DNA of 64,000 bases from a virus, in IMG/VR virus record IMGVR_UViG_3300035698_017294, positions 42,198-106,197 of that record; one strand, written 5' to 3'. This document shows, one piece after another, positions 2,480 to 38,603 of this stretch. Position numbers and translations under genes: made by a program. The notes under the pieces are model-generated. The model did no database searches, was not told the origin of the DNA, and saw nothing but the letters and a program-made list of their open reading frames with translations. The first letter of the stretch is position 1. Every line of letters starts with the position of its first letter.

Positions 2480-3447
2480 AATATTTTTATCCAATACTGA
2501 ATCATTTCGTCTAACATTGTCTCAAAGGTATAGACAGGCTTCCAACCTAATGTCGTTTTGGCCTTGCGCGAATCGCCCTTTAGTCGAGCAAGTTCTTCAG
2601 GGCGCAGGTACTTACTGTCGGTTTTTACATAGGTGCGATAGTCTAGCCCAAGCTTATCGAATACGTATTTGCATAGGTCTTGTACCGTGTGTGATACACC
2701 TGTAGCGCATACGAAGTCATTGGGCTGTTCTTGCTGAAGCATCATCCACATTGCTTTTACATAGTCTGAGGCGTGTCCCCAATCTCGAGCAGCGTCTAAA
2801 TTTCCCAATGTGAGATGATCTAGGTGCCCCAGTTTGATTTCAACGGCACCTTTTACTACTTTGTTAGTAACAAAGTTTATTCCCCTTCTTGGAGATTCGT
2901 GATTGAATAGTATACCATTGGATATGAACATGCCGTAAGCATTACGATAGTTTTTAGTTAAATGATAAGCATATAACTTAGCACAGCCATAAGGACTCAC
3001 AGGTGACATTGGAGTAGTTTCTCGTTGGAATCCATCTGAGTCTATATTGTTCCCGAACATTTCTGAGGAACTAGCTTGATATATTTTTGCATGACGTACA
3101 GCATGTCTAGAGGTTTCCAACAAGTTTAACGTACCAATAGCATTTACCTGGGAGGTGTAAATTGGCTCATCAAAACTTATTCGTACGTGTGATTGGGCAC
3201 CAAGATTGTAAACTTCATCTGGCGAGTATTTACTAAATATACGCTCCAATGAAGAAGTGTCAAGCAGGTCCCCATACTCAAGGGTTATCTGATTCTGTAG
3301 GTGGTCAATCCGGATTGATTGGCTTTCCGGAACGCTGTTTCGGCGTATCATTCCGACTACTCGATATCCTTTAGATATAAGAAACTCGGCTAAGTATGAG
3401 CCATCTTGACCGTTAATACCTGTTATTAGCGCAGTTTTTTTATCCAT
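2476..3447 (-). CDS. gmd: GDP-mannose 4,6-dehydratase
   Basis: ALITGINGQDGSYLAE, YQASSSEMFG, SPYGCAK, NGILFNHESPRRG. Confidence 0.97.
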   Translation of the reverse strand: MDKKTALITGINGQDGSYLAEFLISKGYRVVGMIRRNSVPESQSIRIDHLQNQITLEYGDLLDTSSLERIFSKYSPDEVYNLGAQSHVRISFDEPIYTSQVNAIGTLNLLETSRHAVRHAKIYQASSSEMFGNNIDSDGFQRETTPMSPVSPYGCAKLYAYHLTKNYRNAYGMFISNGILFNHESPRRGINFVTNKVVKGAVEIKLGHLDHLTLGNLDAARDWGHASDYVKAMWMMLQQEQPNDFVCATGVSHTVQDLCKYVFDKLGLDYRTYVKTDSKYLRPEELARLKGDSRKAKTTLGWKPVYTFETMLDEMIQYWIKIL

Positions 3448-4600
3448 TTATCACCTTATTAATAACTGAGCAGACTGTCCTAATGTTAGCTTCTGACATG
3501 CCTGGATGATTTGGTATGTAAAGTCCTTTATTGTGAACCAAGTCATTGGCTACAGGACATGTATCACGTGAACTATAGGCTCGTTGATATGCTGGCTGCA
3601 TTTCCATACTTCCGCATATAAGTGGCCTTGTTTCTATATCATTTTCGATTAGAGCTTTAGCGATTTCATCCCGCTTCGGATGTATTACAGGATAAGCAAA
3701 ACTGGAGACGGTTCCACATGGAACCCTTGGTTTCCAGAAATCATTCATCAAAGTTTCCTGATACAGTTCGAAACCATTATGCCTTGCTCTTACAATTCTA
3801 TCTAGCTTATCAAGTTGTCGAAGACCTATACGTGCTTGTAAATCAGTAGATCTTAAATTCATGCCAGAGAAATAGAATGTAAAGGATTGGTGGAAATCAG
3901 AGATACCATGACTGTTCTGAAGCGTATCACTAGTTTTTTCCGACAGATCTCTTGCCCACCCATGGCTTCTGATACTTAGCATAACTTCATACAACTCTTT
4001 ATCATTGGTGCAAACCATTCCACCTTCAATAGTGGAAATGTGGTGACCGAAATATGTAGAGAAGCTGGACATCTTTCCATATGATCCTAGTTTAGTGCCG
4101 TAGTAAGTTGAGCCTAGGGACTCGCATGCATCTTCGAGTAGGATCATATGACGATCCTCACAAATCCTTTTTATTGCTTCCATCTGCGGTTGCATGCCTA
4201 ATACCGATACTAGTAAAAGTGCTTTAACTTTTGGGTCTGCGGTTAATTCGCCAAAGTGTTTAAAATCTACCGATAATGTCTCTTTGTTGCAATCACAAAG
4301 TACCGGAACTAACCCAAGTTGCATTACGGGAAACAGGTCTGTTGCCCACGATACTGCGGGTACAATAACCTTGTCGCCTTTGACAAGTTGGCCTAATTCG
4401 AGAAGAGCTTGTATCATTATCAGATTGGCAGAGGATCCAGAGTTTACAAACACTGCATGTTCGCGTCCTATATACTGTGCCCATTTCTTTTCGAATTCTT
4501 TTGTAACTGGGCCCTGAGTTAGTCTGGGGTAGGTTTTTAACCATCGAACGAGATCATCTAAATCTAGTCCATCTATAGTATCATTTATTAGTTTTATCAT
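3440..4600 (-). CDS. ColD-like GDP-4-keto-6-deoxymannose 3-dehydratase (DegT/DnrJ fold)
   Basis: VNSGSSANL, EDACESLG; His replaces the PLP Lys in STYFGHHISTIEGG; lies between gmd and the fcl-like gene. Confidence 0.8.
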   Translation of the reverse strand: MIKLINDTIDGLDLDDLVRWLKTYPRLTQGPVTKEFEKKWAQYIGREHAVFVNSGSSANLIMIQALLELGQLVKGDKVIVPAVSWATDLFPVMQLGLVPVLCDCNKETLSVDFKHFGELTADPKVKALLLVSVLGMQPQMEAIKRICEDRHMILLEDACESLGSTYYGTKLGSYGKMSSFSTYFGHHISTIEGGMVCTNDKELYEVMLSIRSHGWARDLSEKTSDTLQNSHGISDFHQSFTFYFSGMNLRSTDLQARIGLRQLDKLDRIVRARHNGFELYQETLMNDFWKPRVPCGTVSSFAYPVIHPKRDEIAKALIENDIETRPLICGSMEMQPAYQRAYSSRDTCPVANDLVHNKGLYIPNHPGMSEANIRTVCSVINKVING

Positions 4601-5510
4601 TGTCCCACTTTTCTTTCATTTGATCGTAAGTGTGTTTAATCCCACTCTCAAGACTTGTTAAGAATATAGGGAAAGGAGTATTACAAAAAGTATGTAGTTT
4701 ACTATTGCTTATATCTTTACGATGTTGCCCACCGAGCATGCCATTAAACTTTATTTTCAGGTGAGGTTTTCCGCAAGCACGAATTGCTATATTGGCAATT
4801 TTCTTAATACTATAATTCTCTGATGAGCCTACGTTCATATTTTCATTTACGTCCTTAAGTATTACATACTTGATTACTTTCGCTAAATCTCCAGCATACA
4901 TGAATTGACGTAGTGGAGTACCATCTCCCCACAGTTCTATTTCGTCCTCAGCCTCATATATTTTACGAAGGAGGGATGCTACAAAGTGGCTGTTATGGGG
5001 TTCATACTTATCGTATATACCATACAAGTTTGATGGTATCAAGTAGCTATATTTTTTATTGTATTGCTGACGGTAAGCATCTATTTGTGCCGCCATAGCT
5101 CTTTTGGCCATTGCATACGCAAAGTTACTTTGGGGGGCTGGTCCCTGATACAGCATGTCTTCAGTCATTGGGTACTGTTTCACCTGTTCAGGATAAATAC
5201 AACTGCTCAACATGCCAATGAATCGATCTACTCCATAAGCATGTGCATGCTTAAGTATGAGAGTGTTCATTAAGATGTTATCTTCCAGGTACTTTGTCGG
5301 ATTAGATGTGTTATCCTGTATGCCCCCCACTTTGGCCGCTAAGTGTATTACAATTTTCGGTTGGTATAGATAGAACATTTCTTCAACATCCGGTTCAGAA
5401 GTCAAATCATATTCTGCTGAGGATAAATAATTAAAATCTGGCATCACTTCTTGGAGGTATTGACCTACTAAGCCATATCCTCCGGTTATTAAGGTTTTAG
5501 TCATTAGCAT
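4581..5510 (-). CDS. GDP-L-fucose/colitose synthase (Fcl/ColC family)
   Basis: ITGGYGLVG, HLAAKVGGI, SSCIYP, YAMAK, WGDGTPLRQF. Confidence 0.9.
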   Translation of the reverse strand: MLMTKTLITGGYGLVGQYLQEVMPDFNYLSSAEYDLTSEPDVEEMFYLYQPKIVIHLAAKVGGIQDNTSNPTKYLEDNILMNTLILKHAHAYGVDRFIGMLSSCIYPEQVKQYPMTEDMLYQGPAPQSNFAYAMAKRAMAAQIDAYRQQYNKKYSYLIPSNLYGIYDKYEPHNSHFVASLLRKIYEAEDEIELWGDGTPLRQFMYAGDLAKVIKYVILKDVNENMNVGSSENYSIKKIANIAIRACGKPHLKIKFNGMLGGQHRKDISNSKLHTFCNTPFPIFLTSLESGIKHTYDQMKEKWDNDKTNK

Positions 5511-26481: not shown

Positions 26482-26563
26482 ATATACTTCTCTATTGGAT
26501 ACCCATCACTGCGAACGTGGCTAGCATTGCAAGCAGTGTCTACATAACGGCAAGAAAAATAAA

Positions 26564-26637
26564 TGACCCAGGCGGGACTTGAACCCGCAACCTTCGACGT
26601 GAAAGGCCGATGTCTTAACCAATTCGACGACTGGGCC
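26564..26637 (-). tRNA. tRNA-Glu(TTC)
   Basis: TCGGC-CTTTCAC-GTCGA. Confidence 0.93.
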
Positions 26638-26647
26638 ACGGAATGGA

Positions 26648-27086: not shown

Positions 27087-27888
27087 CTTACCACACTTGC
27101 TTTCACAAGCCAGCTATTAAGCTGTTGTAGTCTGGACTATATCATCATCTTCAGCATTACCTGCTAAGAGCCCGGCGTATAGTCTCTGAGGGGTCATTAC
27201 AGACTTCCCTGCGGATTGCCAATTGTTTCATTCTACACATTGTTACTTGACAAATCAGTCCAAATTTGGTAGACTTGTAGTAGTGCAGACTTTACGGGTT
27301 TCCCGCATATAGCCAGGTTCCATCTAATTATTTCTAACCAGAGGCTCAGATTCATGAAAAATATATCAAAAGATGTTTTGTCAGAAATGTATTTAACGCA
27401 GAAACTTAATCCATACGAAATAAGTAATATACTAGACTGCGATCATAAAACAGTTCGTAGATACCTAAAATTACATAAGATACAACTACGTACTGCGTCT
27501 GAGTATAATTACTTACCTCGAGTTTCGCATACTAATCCCACTAAAATAGAGTATATGCAGCCTAAATCAATAGCGGCGCATATTGCCTATTTATGCGAAG
27601 GTTGGCACACTAATAAAACTAATGGGCTTTATTTCTGTAATACAGATCCAAATTTAAATGATCTCATGTTGTGGTGCCTCAAAGAGATATACAATGCTAA
27701 AACTATTAGATTGCGCATAATGGCAAAGTCTTTAGAGTCGGCAAAGCATTTATTAACATTCTATCCTAATACACCAGTAAGTGTAGAGTTAGATAGAAAG
27801 ACACCAATACTTAGAATTGTCTCGGGCGGGAAAACATTTGCTCGGGACTTCATTAAAAACGCTTATGATATAATTGATTCACTTGGTT
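27087..27888 (-). mobile_element. group I intron after U34 of tRNA-Leu
   Basis: 5' exon ends in U, intron ends in G; core motifs ATATGCGGGAAA, AATCCGCAGGGAAG, TCAGAGACTATACG, GATATAGTCC. Confidence 0.92.
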
Positions 27889-27931: not shown

Positions 27932-28015
27932 GTACAGTTAGAGGGACTCGAACCCCCAAGGTATCACAGTACCACAACTCTCACTGCGCGTCTACCATTT
28001 TCGCCATAACTGTAC
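27932..28015 (-). ncRNA. tRNA-Leu-like mimic with the anticodon arm reduced to a GNRA hairpin
   Basis: 9-bp terminal stem, Leu-type D-arm GGCGAAAATGGTAGACGC, CAGT-GAGA-GTTG, variable arm, canonical T-arm. Confidence 0.75.
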
Positions 28016-36002: not shown

Positions 36003-36075
36003 CGGGCCCGGGAGGAGTCGAACCTCCGACACCGCGGTTAACAGCCGCGTGCTCTGACCACTGAGCTACAGGCCC
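36003..36075 (-). tRNA. tRNA-Asn(GTT)
   Basis: CGCGG-CTGTTAA-CCGCG; G73. Confidence 0.95.
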
Positions 36076-36091
36076 TTTATAAATTGTAAAT

Positions 36092-36150
36092 AAAAAAAAG
36101 CACACAGCTAATTCCGCCTACTCGTAAGAATAAGCCGAATTAGCCGTATA
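36092..36150 (-). terminator. long-stem intrinsic terminator
   Basis: TATACGGCTAATTC...GAATTAGCTGTGTG followed by T8. Confidence 0.7.
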
Positions 36151-36168
36151 CAATTTTATGCTTTGTCT

Positions 36169-36180
36169 ATGTCAAAGATC
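36169..36180 (-). promoter_or_regulatory. boxA-like antitermination signal
   Basis: GATCTTTGACAT resembles rrn boxA (TGCTCTTTAACA), about 20 nt upstream of the terminator. Confidence 0.5.
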
Positions 36181-36186
36181 TTTCTA

Positions 36187-36260
36187 TGGCGGGGACGGGA
36201 TTTGAACCCGTGACCTTAAGGGTATGAGCCTTACGAGCTGCCAGACTGCTCCACCCCGCT
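36187..36260 (-). tRNA. initiator-like tRNA-Met(CAT)
   Basis: A1xC72 mismatch, A11:U24, TAAGG-CTCATAC-CCTTA. Confidence 0.88.
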
Positions 36261-36264
36261 GTGT

Positions 36265-36475
36265 ACTAGCTTTACTTCTTGCGACTGGTCGTTAGTAATA
36301 TCGCATTGGCCGGTTTTCCGCCTTTGCACTAATACCTGCGCAGCTTGGAAAGCGGAGCGGGTGATCGTGGTTGGCGGAAAAAAGGCCTGGAGGCGATTAT
36401 TACCGGCGATCAATATCGCGTCTTCAATAATCGTCCGAGACGTTACGTCCCAGAATGTGATAGCCTAAAGCTAGT
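36265..36475 (-). ncRNA. candidate structured ncRNA, family B copy 1
   Basis: 10-bp closing stem ACTAGCTTTA/TAAAGCTAGT; AGGCTA, GGGACGTAACGTCTCG, TCCAGG and AAGTAAA shared with copy 2. Confidence 0.62.
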
Positions 36476-36757
36476 TAGTTTTACTTTTTGGCGGTACCCC
36501 TCTACAACGATAGGTTGTCGATAGATTGTTCCCGAGCGAATGCGAGGGAAAATCTGGCGATAAGAGGTGGTTCGCCAACTTTGGACTTGTTGGGGATCCG
36601 GATCCCCGATCGGGGAGCCCCGCACGCGTCGGGGCGCCTGCGGTCCGGAGAGCCGGAGACCTGGAAAGCCCATTTTGGAACAAAACGTGTTCCCGCGAGA
36701 CGTTACGTCTCACAGCATTACGAATCACCGTGGGCTGCACTAGCCTGAACTCGGCTA
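36476..36757 (-). ncRNA. candidate structured ncRNA, family B copy 2
   Basis: Same ordered motifs (AGGCTA, GAGACGTAACGTCTCG, TCCAGG, AAGTAAA); many GC-rich hairpins. Confidence 0.62.
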
Positions 36758-36810
36758 CTACAGATTACGCTGATTTTGACCGTAACACATATCTAAATCT
36801 AAAACTAAAG

Positions 36811-37133
36811 TGGAGGCGAAGGGAGTTGAACCCTTGTCCACACGATAACGAAACATGCTGTTTCTTACAGGCTTAGTTAGTTTTTACACTTTTATTTGTT
36901 AATCCGGGGCGGTTCTGAAACTAACTTAGTAGTCCCCGGCGTTGGCCATTTGTTTAGCCGTGGTCTAGCGGCTTTCCGATCCGGCGCCGATTCCCTAACA
37001 TCGGAGTCTTAGGGTCGACGGCTACTTAGTTAACCTAAGCGGCTAGTGGTAAATATTCGTCAATTACATTGAAAGGAGTATCATGCCTGTAGCATATATC
37101 GATAGAATCGCATGTCGAAACCAATGCGCCCCC
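36811..37133 (-). ncRNA. ssrA: tmRNA; predicted tag (A)DEYLPLAA* at 37035-37061
   Basis: 5' GGGGGCG...GGTTTCGAC, 3' GGACAAGGGTTCAACTCCCTTCGCCTCCA, G3:U70, tag ending LAA-stop. Confidence 0.93.
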
Positions 37134-37148
37134 ATAAAATAATACAAT

Positions 37149-37328
37149 TTACAACTGCTGTGCTGTTACGCCAAAGACGGTGGGAAAGCGCTCCCAATGC
37201 CGCGGGCTCCCACGCCTTTTTCTCGGGAGTACCATTTAAGTTACCGCTCCTCTGGTTCGTTGCAGATGCAGGCCATCGGTGTCACTCTTTAAAGGGTGGC
37301 TGCTTCTAAGCCTACCTCGCCGCTGTAA
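37149..37328 (-). ncRNA. ncRNA family C copy 1: split mimic of the 23S rRNA GTPase-associated centre (H43/H44)
   Basis: GGTAGGCTTAGAAGCAGCCACCCTTTAAAGAGTG ... ~110-nt insert ... GCGTAACAGC, enclosed by TTACAGC/GTTGTAA. Confidence 0.75.
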
Positions 37329-37362
37329 GGTGTATTCATATGTTGTTGTGTAAATTTATGTG

Positions 37363-37542
37363 ATACAACTGCTGTGCCGAGTTTAAGTCGACTAAAGACC
37401 GCTATCCAGCTGTGATAGCTACGGACGGTTCCTCCTTCACAGGGAGGAAAAAATTATCCGCGACAATAGGTCGTTGCAAATGCAGGCTACTGCCATCAAC
37501 ATTAAAGGCTCGCGTAATTGCGTCAACACCTGGCCGTTGTAT
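37363..37542 (-). ncRNA. ncRNA family C copy 2, with the rRNA-like loops replaced
   Basis: Shares TACARCGGC, CCTTTAA, GCCTGCATYTGCAACGA, GTCTTT and GCACAGCAGTTGTA with copy 1; same 180-nt length. Confidence 0.7.
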
Positions 37543-37558
37543 AGATAAATTAAAAAGA

Positions 37559-37640
37559 AGCGGAAAGCACATGAAGTAGTTGGTACATCATAAGTGTACT
37601 GCACATTGTGCAGTTAGAAGGAACTTCATGTATGGCCACT
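37559..37640 (-). ncRNA. ncRNA family D copy 1
   Basis: AGTGG-CCAT-ACATGAAGT-TCCTTCTA...ACTTCATGT-GCTTT-CCGCT. Confidence 0.75.
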
Positions 37641-37642
37641 AA

Positions 37643-37714
37643 TGCGCCGCCCCGGACTTGAACCAGGAACCGACCTCCCCACGGAGGGTGCTCTATCTAT
37701 TGAGCTAACAGCGC
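37643..37714 (-). ncRNA. tRNA-like RNA with a collapsed anticodon loop
   Basis: Canonical acceptor, D and T arms; anticodon arm CCTCC-GTGG-GGAGG (4-nt loop). Confidence 0.72.
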
Positions 37715-37720
37715 GAAATA

Positions 37721-37800
37721 TACGGAAGGCGTTCGAAGTAAGGTTTTTAAGGATTCGCCCGCCGGGCGAATAAGTAGAAGGAACTTCGAACATAGCCGTA
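37721..37800 (-). ncRNA. ncRNA family D copy 2
   Basis: TACGG-CTAT-GTTCGAAGT-TCCTTCTA...ACTTCGAAC-GCCTT-CCGTA. Confidence 0.75.
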
Positions 37801-37812
37801 ATAAAAACAAAA

Positions 37813-37919
37813 ACAGGAAAGCAGTTAAAGTAGGTTATATAGCGGGTCTCCAACGCCTCGATAGACGCCGAGCGCCCCGCTGGGCTTTATAAGTAGAAGG
37901 AACTTTAACTATGGCCTGT
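37813..37919 (-). ncRNA. ncRNA family D copy 3
   Basis: ACAGG-CCAT-AGTTAAAGT-TCCTTCTA...ACTTTAACT-GCTTT-CCTGT. Confidence 0.75.
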
Positions 37920-37921
37920 AG

Positions 37922-38018
37922 TGGGGCACCCAGGACTCGAACCTGGAACCAACAGAGTCCGCAGCGTCATACAGCGCCGCTTACAGTCAGCTGCCCTAGC
38001 CAATTGAGCTAGCGCCCC
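37922..38018 (-). tRNA. tRNA-Tyr(GTA)-like with a 23-nt insertion at 37/38 (37958-37980)
   Basis: Removing GCGGCGCTGTATGACGCTGCGGA gives a 74-nt class I cloverleaf with loop CTGTAAC. Confidence 0.7.
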
Positions 38019-38023
38019 TAAAC

Positions 38024-38053
38024 AAAAAAAGCGACTCATAACATGGTCGCTTT
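38024..38053 (-). terminator. intrinsic terminator-like hairpin
   Basis: AAAGCGAC...GTCGC-T7. Confidence 0.55.
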
Positions 38054-38180
38054 AAGATTTCAAATATTGCCATGTTTTATATATCTACTTGAAACCTGCA
38101 TTTCTCCCTAGGACGGATTGGTCTTCCGGGCGAATGGCTGGTTTATATGTAAATAATACATGGAGTGTTTTCATGTCATT

Positions 38181-38209
38181 AGTATACTAAATTTAGATCT
38201 GCTTGTCAA
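38181..38209 (-). promoter_or_regulatory. consensus sigma70 promoter upstream of the ncRNA island
   Basis: TTGACA-17 nt-TATACT. Confidence 0.8.
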
Positions 38210-38211
38210 GT

Positions 38212-38590
38212 AAAAAACCGGCGAGGCTGGCAAGAGTGGATAGACCACCCCTGCCGATCGGGTATCAACCGCATGCACTCGCCCCTTATAGCTTACCAAA
38301 CTATCTGTAAAACTGGACTCACAGAACCGCCGATGCAAATAAACGAACCAGTTCCGGTCCGCATTCCACCGATAAGCCCGTGCAGACTCGCGGTATTATT
38401 GTTTCACAGGTGCACGCTCTGTGAATTTTTAGTCCGCATAAAGGCCTTAATTTATAACCGATAACACCCTCGCATTTGGGGTGCCTCTCGGTACGATCCC
38501 GTAGCCCAGATTACAGTATAGTTGGCCCACAAACGCGTCGTGAAAAATGTATTAACACGACGGCAAGGGCAGGTAAACCGTATACGATAG
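38212..38590 (-). ncRNA. candidate ~375-nt multi-helix ncRNA
   Basis: No sense ORF; starts just after TGGTATAAGA; many helices; ends in a GGCGAG/CTCGCC domain followed by T6. Confidence 0.55.
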
Positions 38591-38593
38591 TTT

Positions 38594-38603
38594 TCTTATA
38601 CCA
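38594..38603 (-). promoter_or_regulatory. recurrent TGGTATAAGA motif
   Basis: See 23639; preceded by an A-tract. Confidence 0.55.

Follow-up and report, generated by a model that had tools for sequence, protein, structure and literature searches.

A large phage carries a 182-nt RNA unit that copies part of 23S rRNA and, next to it, a second unit of 180 nt: is this second unit a relative of the first, does it still imitate the ribosome, and, if not, what is it likely to be? The two, hereafter unit 1 and unit 2, lie in the window analysed here, a 64-kb stretch of DNA that is a section of a 106-kb virus record. Salt-lake metagenomes from 2017-2019 contain this record at low depth, and contigs from four salt-lake DNA runs show 0 differences across this region, so that population variation is absent there. 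ARAGORN reports 19 tRNA genes and a tmRNA gene, and the minus strand encodes every RNA gene. Positions 36003-38600 form an RNA island without protein genes, flanked by polynucleotide kinase (PNK)/RNA ligase genes and a DNA ligase gene; the closest PNK homologues are ~52% identical, except for one 100%-identical fragment on a 2.1-kb contig. The order of transcription is unit 2 (37542 to 37363), a 33-nt A/U-rich spacer, unit 1 (37329 to 37148), 14 nt, and the tmRNA. In the list below, GAC is the GTPase-associated centre of 23S rRNA and R1 is the covariance model of the phage GAC-mimic family, most full-length members of which score 59-131 bits.

37363-37542, minus strand: unit 2, 180-nt paralogue without GAC heads (homology to unit 1; 3.3 bits on R1)
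37148-37329, minus strand: unit 1, mimic of the GAC (23S H42-H44), 182 nt (112.9 bits on R1, E 1e-35)
36808-37133, minus strand: tmRNA gene, 14 nt downstream of unit 1
38181-38209, minus strand: near-consensus sigma70-type promoter, TTGACA-17-TATACT (11/12 match), upstream of the RNA island

Judged from sequence, units 2 and 1 are probably transcribed from the promoter at 38181-38209, and the tmRNA and tRNAs with them, so that all would be co-transcribed.

Other RNA elements were noticed in the island and elsewhere in the window. Three repeated small RNA units (37553-37653, 37721-37800 and 37813-37919, minus strand) carry UCCUUCUA (GAAGUUCCUUCUA); the unit at 37553-37653 gives a weak Vault-RNA match (E 0.52), and a tRNA-His-like gene with the odd anticodon loop CCGUGGG lies between the repeat units of 37553-37919. 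A tRNA at 37922-38018 (minus strand; 46.5 bits, Rfam) has a 24-nt insertion in its anticodon loop and no ARAGORN call. At 27114-27368 / 27932-28013 (minus strand) the window matches the Rfam group I intron with 63 bits, and nearby lies an ARAGORN tRNA call whose anticodon has four letters (gttg).

By sequence comparison, unit 1 is a true member of a phage family copying 23S rRNA H42-H44. Its ends reproduce H42-H43, which we matched to real 23S, and the H44 hairpin, and a 108-nt insert of three hairpins enters the 5' strand of H44. A pattern search of IMG/VR yielded at least 119 GAC-mimic loci, at least 100 of them distinct, from which 73 full-length units were extracted. An alignment of 36 sequences has invariant GAC residues and ample covariation in H42, in H43 and in the helix at the base of the insert; it is the insert that varies. 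Within the H43 hairpin, unit 1 columns G19, T21, T22, G27, C28 and C31 are invariant, and G18, C20, A25, A29 and G30 are conserved at 90% or more. AAAG (equivalent to E. coli 1084-1087) and the CUUU after the insert do not vary among the 36 members and are mutually complementary, which hints at an additional or alternative pairing at the insert junction.

Homologues are present in the Pseudomonas phages pf16 (KU873925, ~29.4-29.6 kb) and Milchi (PQ464597), in both cases among tRNA genes and unannotated, and these cultured phages are practical experimental systems for the family. The pf16 mimic (L001:1492-1684) sits between tRNA-Asn and tRNA-Pro; a small 'hypothetical protein' called on the opposite strand overlaps the Milchi mimic (L002:1493-1664). 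The nearest relative found, L021/L022 (ligase 53% identical), shows the same design with a single GAC mimic; just downstream of it, L021:8420-8850 holds several tRNA-like genes that have no ARAGORN call and apparently carry long insertions in or near the anticodon loop. The family is large; it is absent from Rfam 15, and no description of it was found in the literature searched. Thermodynamic folding of unit 1 gives a z-score of +0.39, and the energy model does not prefer its true fold, so that thermodynamic z-scores are uninformative for GAC mimics.

The earlier note described unit 2 as a paralogue of unit 1 with both rRNA-like loops exchanged, and the strings that it quoted are all present on the minus strand of the two units. 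The global alignment of unit 1 with unit 2 scores 16, as against 2.0 ± 1.3 (maximum 8) in 1000 shuffles (z ~11); unrelated 180-nt segments from elsewhere in the 106-kb genome, overlapping neither unit, reach 7 at most. R2, a covariance model built from unit 2 alone, matches unit 1 over its full length (42 bits, E 7.6e-9) and an L053-type family member at 21 bits. The alignment z-score and the 42-bit match establish that the two units are paralogues. Common to both are the 5' block UACA[G/A]CGGC, the 3' block GCACAGCAGUUGUA (14/14), CCUUUAA, GUCUUU and a 17-nt core block, GCCUGCAU[C/U]UGCAACGA, of which 16/17 positions are identical; identical positions cluster into blocks to a merely moderate degree (permutation p 0.012-0.068). 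The H43 head is ~4/18 identical to that of unit 1 (hand count), which is the random level, whereas its flanks are 12/15 and 7/7 identical. Both replaced heads changed in length and their immediate flanks remained nearly identical to unit 1, a pattern unlike uniform neutral decay. With the H43 segment at this level and a different H44 hairpin between preserved flanks, the claimed exchange of both heads is confirmed.

On R1, with filters off, unit 2 scores 3.3 bits (E 2.9), which is noise, and the alignment lands exactly on the unit coordinates; taken with the R2 match to unit 1, this identifies unit 2 as a paralogue that no longer mimics the GAC. By every feature of head or score that marks a GAC mimic, unit 2 is not one: it has lost the H43 loop and the H44 hairpin, and with them the AAAGAGUG strand. 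Its H43 segment reads GGUGUUGACGCAAUUACGCGAGCC and its H44 hairpin GUCGA-CUUAAAC-UCGGC, and the two replacements map as follows.

37507-37530, minus strand: H43 head replaced; outer pairs GG...CC plus a small hairpin, CGC/GCG, whose loop is AAUUAC; lacks UUAGAAGCA
37376-37392, minus strand: replacement of the H44 head, GUCGA/UCGGC, with a 5-bp stem and the 7-nt loop CUUAAAC (anticodon-arm dimensions)

The H43 hairpin that carries UUAGAAGCA (E. coli U1065-A1073, including A1067) on a GGC/GCC stem is not found in unit 2, which has GUUGACGCAAUUACGCGAG at that position; helix 3 of this replacement belongs to unit 2 specifically, 33% of its cells being paired among three sequences. Equally missing from unit 2 is the H44 hairpin GGC-GUAAYA-GC (G1091-C1100, including A1095), which in the family follows an invariant CUUUGG: unit 2 carries CUUUAG before GUCGA-CUUAAAC-UCGGC and so keeps only the CUUU. 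The best local match of unit 2 to 23S rRNA is 9 nt, equalled by 192/200 shuffles, and comparison with Acinetobacter 23S and 16S rRNA gave no similarity above shuffles. A candidate likeness of CCUUUAAUGUUGAUG and CUGCAU..CGACCU to L1-stalk rRNA was dropped on the same Acinetobacter 23S/16S comparison. A search of Rfam 15 over 37363-37542 returned no match at the gathering score or at E <=10.

What unit 2 has kept is the remainder of the GAC-mimic architecture, which consists of the following parts, listed from its 5' end with the closing helix first.

37536-37542, minus strand: 5' strand of closing helix P1, AUACAAC (7/7 pairs), followed by the junction GGC
37363-37369, minus strand: 3' strand of P1, GUUGUAU, the end of the GCACAGCAGUUGUA block (14/14 identical to unit 1)
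37502-37508, minus strand: junction strand CCUUUAA (equivalent to E. coli 1079-1085), kept 7/7
37462-37494, minus strand: hairpin A, with the 8-bp stem GGCAGUAG/CUAUUGUC and the 17-nt loop CCUGCAUUUGCAACGAC at 37470-37486
37421-37461, minus strand: hairpin B, with outer stem GCGGAU/GUCCGU, inner stem UUCCUCC/GGAGGAA and the 7-nt loop CUGUGAA at 37436-37442
37401-37419, minus strand: hairpin C, GCUAUC-ACAGCUG-GAUAGC (unit 1 equivalent GGGAG-CGCU-UUCCC)
37394-37399, minus strand: GUCUUU, comprising the 3' strand of the insert basal helix (GAU/GUC) and the family-invariant CUUU

The scaffold of a GAC mimic is thus found in unit 2 as P1 with 7/7 bp and GC/GC, as the junction strands AGGU, CCUUUAA, GUCUUU and GCACA, and as the basal insert helix P-ins (GAU/GUC). 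As in the family, the insert joins the 5' strand of H44 by way of a helix closed by G-C, and the location is also that of the family: a large phage, among tRNA and tmRNA genes and on the same strand. Unit 1, unit 2, L021 and L053 share one architecture made up of P1, the junction, a basal insert helix (GAC/GUC, GAU/GUC, GACG/CGUC and GAUAAC/GUUGUC, respectively) and three hairpins. Hairpin A is built on unrelated stems, CCGAUGG/CCAGAGG in unit 1, GGCAGUAG/CUAUUGUC in unit 2 and ACACACA/UGUGAUGU in L021, and yet the loop is kept; L053 has a small hairpin at this position, without the 17-nt motif. Hairpin B has an outer stem of the GCGG/CCGC type and an inner stem of the CCUCC/GGAGG type across relatives. 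In hairpin C, which is weakly terminator-like, 5/6 pairs are changed on both sides. P1 differs from unit 1 in two pairs, one with both partners exchanged (U-A to A-U) and one with a single partner exchanged (G.U to A-U).

All the helices of unit 2 are intact (P1, P-ins, A, B-outer, B-inner and C, with 7, 3, 8, 6, 7 and 6 bp) and are the most regular among the four sequences. Unconstrained folding of the insert gives hairpins A, B and C, with the minimum free energy (MFE) structure equal to the centroid (z -1.91), and folding of the whole unit reaches a z of only -1.78. In a model-fitted alignment limited to three sequences (unit 2, unit 1 and L053), in which both the alignment and the structure derive from unit 2, 86.8% of cells are paired, against 72.9 ± 2.4 in shuffled and 34-52% in slid versions, and 17 pairs are changed on both sides, against 6.5 ± 1.9 (0/500 shuffles). 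Five G.U pairs fit the minus strand only. Stems that differ in sequence yet still pair count against plain decay. Of the proposal that unit 2 represents a conserved scaffold with interchangeable display loops, the scaffold stands on its compensatory changes, a display role is plausible, and interchangeability is a reasonable suggestion from a single example.

The 17-nt loop of hairpin A is the part that the earlier note had singled out as the most conserved, non-rRNA core. It reads CCUGCAUCUGCAACGAA in unit 1 and CCUGCAUUUGCAACGAC in unit 2 (15/17 identical), and CAUAUGCAUAGCAACUC in L021, where the 17-nt core takes the variant form UAUGCAUAGCAAC. The 17-mer GCCTGCATYTGCAACGA has 18 matches across viral contigs, about the number expected by chance and all in unrelated, coding-like sequence. 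The pattern CCTGCATYTGCAACGA-N6-14-GCGG likewise gave 67 matches in metagenome contigs, none with the flanking motifs. The loop sequence is therefore confined to this phage, and the claim of a most conserved core is true within the unit 1/unit 2 pair and fails across the family, where L021 carries a variant and L053 lacks the motif. A separate binding partner for the 17-nt core is a reasonable suggestion from sequence that rests on one genome; for the catalytic core proposed alongside it, we found no indication.

The loop of hairpin A is also self-complementary. Unit 2 contains the quasi-palindrome UGCAUUUGCA; the self-complementary stretch is UGCAUYUGCA in units 1 and 2 and UAUGCAUA in L021, and is absent in L053. 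Predicted loop-loop duplexes, for the homodimers and for the unit 1/unit 2 heterodimer, range from -9.7 to -11.5 kcal/mol. A search for pairing targets of this loop within the RNA island gave a best value of -17 kcal/mol, against -16.8 ± 2.2 for shuffled loops.

Two of the loops gained by unit 2 resemble anticodon loops. The loop CUUAAAC is 6/7 identical to the anticodon loop of the phage tRNA-Leu(UAA), and the hairpin B loop CUGUGAA, which replaces a longer loop, sits on a 7-bp stem and is anticodon-loop-like (U33, GUG, A37). Both fit the signature C32-U33-NNN-A37-A/C38 that nearly all tRNAs of the phage display, and this signature occurs in 0/58 predicted seven-nt loops in 73 family members. 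By hand count, the core of hairpin B agrees with the tRNA-Ser(GCU) anticodon arm of this phage at 15/17 positions; its CCUCC stem, however, is ancestral to the insert. The probability that a random 7-mer is 6/7 identical to any anticodon loop of the phage is 0.019, for a comparison that was chosen after the loops had been noticed. Because it was noticed post hoc, the likeness is a lead and not a result; as such, the new loops of unit 2 plausibly support the notion of display loops. The GUCGA/UCGGC stem (37376-37392) also corresponds to the strand-swapped anticodon stem UCGGC/GUCGA of tRNA-Glu (26563-26638), probably by coincidence.

If real, the likeness would connect GAC-mimic RNAs with an arms race centred on tRNA, of which the RNA ligase/PNK genes next to the island are suggestive. 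Carried further, it would make unit 2 a re-tooled decoy whose Leu-UAA-like CUUAAAC and His-GUG-like CUGUGAA bait anticodon-directed host enzymes, an idea drawn from sequence that we consider improbable. Were it true, the targets would be defence anticodon nucleases or queuosine-type modification enzymes, the decoy would complement the adjacent rnl1/pnk tRNA-repair genes and could form a heterodimer with unit 1 through the common palindromic loop, and the phage RNAs would constitute a modular platform displaying different mimics of the translation machinery.

We also consider whether unit 2 has orthologues and whether GAC mimics are duplicated elsewhere. Searches of viral contigs, of metagenome contigs and of the nearest relatives yielded no orthologue of unit 2. 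A blastn search with unit 2 against all fetched family loci returned chance matches only, and the viral contigs that matched the insert-subtype pattern were all of the L021 or L053 type, neither of which has a unit-2-like neighbour. R2 found nothing new in 825 kb of family loci and the whole contigs of the five nearest records, in a scan of limited sensitivity, since its first-look filter also missed the known 21-bit L053 match. The L021 region upstream of the tmRNA contains no homologue of unit 2. Paralogues within other loci were sought with R1, because a blastn self-similarity scan missed even the unit 1/unit 2 pair. L106:3845-4335 (minus strand) holds a tandem pair of GAC mimics with a 13-nt spacer (105 and 76.5 bits), and L038 has two copies, at 3766-4085 (82.8 bits) and 4723-4942 (39 bits), the second with a shortened H43 loop and with its H44 loop replaced by the 7-nt UUGAAAG. 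In L034 a 95-bit copy lies at 2930-3233 and a very weak one, 14.7 bits, at 1163-1353. None of these three pairs shows overall similarity beyond the model match. These second copies indicate that duplication of the GAC-mimic RNA is recurrent. The L106 and L038 pairs have recognisable GAC heads and different inserts, which is the converse of unit 1 and unit 2.

The reading that we favour, and hold to be rather likely, is that unit 2 is a remodelled and probably functional structured RNA that is not a GAC mimic and acts via its accessory domain and its new loops. It would be an old tandem duplicate of the GAC-mimic RNA, remodelled instead of decaying. Unit 2 would probably be made on one minus-strand transcript with unit 1, the tmRNA and the tRNAs, starting from the promoter at 38209-38181, and this transcript would then be trimmed to a self-closed unit 2 RNA of ~180 nt. 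Unit 2 has kept its H42-like helix, the strands of the junction and the full accessory domain with its 17-nt loop; the H43/H44 heads, with every residue by which the family copies the uL11/thiostrepton/GTPase-factor site, have given way to unrelated hairpins. As unit 2 cannot imitate the GAC, it would act through what it has retained and gained: its most likely partner would be whatever recognises the accessory domain, possibly including unit 1 itself through the self-complementary UGCA..UGCA loop, and it would present new hairpin loops where the rRNA heads were.

Two other readings accept the origin of unit 2 and differ on its fate or its fold. It could be a decaying pseudogene, a dead duplicate of unit 1 in which the shared blocks are chance survivors or are kept for processing of the transcript. 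All family-defining residues are indeed lost and the R1 score is at noise level, unit 2 is a singleton with a negative orthologue search and a single-copy closest relative, and the second copies of L106 (76 bits), L038 (39 bits) and L034 (15 bits) could form a decay series. However, decay to ~25% stem identity should have broken the helices, and those of unit 2 are the most regular of the four sequences compared; a stem of 8/8 bp exactly flanks the conserved loop, for which chance would be ~4e-4 at 0.375 per pair with random flanks; the replaced heads are neat hairpins of altered length rather than eroded copies; and 180 nt of junk is seldom retained in phage genomes. We therefore regard a pseudogene as unlikely. 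Slightly more credible, and still a minority view, is a different predicted fold, in which GUGUUGA..UUUAA.GUUGAU pairs with GUCGAC.UUAAA.UCGGCAC over ~18 bp to form a single rod-like helix that holds the three-hairpin domain. This rod is the MFE structure (-55.6 kcal/mol) and, with hairpins A-C equal, is computed at -52.4 against -42.4 kcal/mol for the GAC-like topology. Yet the same 5'/3' complementarity is reached by 102/500 shuffles, the energy model also misses the true fold of unit 1 (z +0.39), and the exact anticodon-arm dimensions and signature of the 3' hairpin favour a local hairpin.

The remaining alternatives place the function outside a structured RNA. An element acting at the DNA level, namely an internal promoter TTTGCA-16-GATAAT at 37480-37453 that boosts unit 1 and the tmRNA, would have the conserved loop-A sequence as its -35 and GCGGAUAAU as its -10, with a 9/12 match; such matches are at background (7 found, 4.0 ± 1.8 expected), the equivalent conserved block of unit 1 yields none, and the preserved helices would be left unexplained, which makes this reading very improbable. 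Hardly any credence is due to a small protein gene, the 56-codon minus-strand open reading frame (ORF) at 37402-37572: it starts with ATG and covers most of unit 2, but ORFs over unit 2 have no Pfam or PHROG match, no Shine-Dalgarno sequence is visible upstream, and helices with G.U pairs account for the conservation. On the minus strand of unit 1, moreover, no ORF reaches 40 aa, so that the blocks common to both units are not coding.

The unit 1/unit 2 pair amounts to a natural reverse experiment, in which insert and scaffold were kept and both rRNA-like heads discarded. Retention of the insert without the heads implies an independent role for the accessory domain, above all for the 17-nt loop in hairpin A. 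The pair also provides a built-in control, since the two units should differ in binding uL11 and GTPase factors and share the binders of the insert. The head-swapped paralogue, which we found neither in Rfam 15 nor in the literature searched, appears to be a natural domain-swap singleton of one genome; the weight of a single-genome variant is limited, and what we propose of its function draws on sequence comparison and predicted fold.

Among known systems, the phage GAC-mimic family stands closest: unit 2 shares its closing helix, junction strands, insert position, three-hairpin subtype, strand and tRNA/tmRNA setting, and differs in lacking the H43 loop UUAGAAGCA, the H44 hairpin GGCGUAAYAGC and the AAAGAGUG strand. 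With the 23S GAC itself (H42-H44, E. coli 1051-1108) it has in common only the remnants AGGU, CCUUUAA and GCACA and an H42-like helix, whereas the A1067- and A1095-type loops and the equivalent of A1088 are missing. Given these missing loops and the absence of rRNA similarity above shuffles, binding of uL11 by unit 2 is not expected. The leaders of ribosomal-protein operons (L10, L1/L11) mimic rRNA sites and, like unit 2, are non-ribosomal RNAs derived from or imitating a protein-binding site of rRNA; they are cis-regulatory mRNA leaders that keep the mimic, whereas unit 2 stands alone and has lost it. Kissing-loop dimerisation hairpins are also known, for example the retroviral DIS, and hairpin A resembles these DIS-type loops in exposing a self-complementary sequence, with the differences that its loop has 17 nt and not 9, that the palindrome is split and that the dimer is a prediction. 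Finally, the bacterial Y RNAs (YrlA) carry a tRNA-like module on a helical scaffold (PMC4201824). Unit 2 has no sequence or Rfam relationship to YrlA and no T-arm or acceptor mimic, and it implies no Ro60-type partner; both are nonetheless modular non-coding RNAs of phage or bacterial RNA islands in which a closed stem carries mimic modules, and the two anticodon-loop-like hairpins on the scaffold of unit 2 parallel the tRNA-like module of YrlA.
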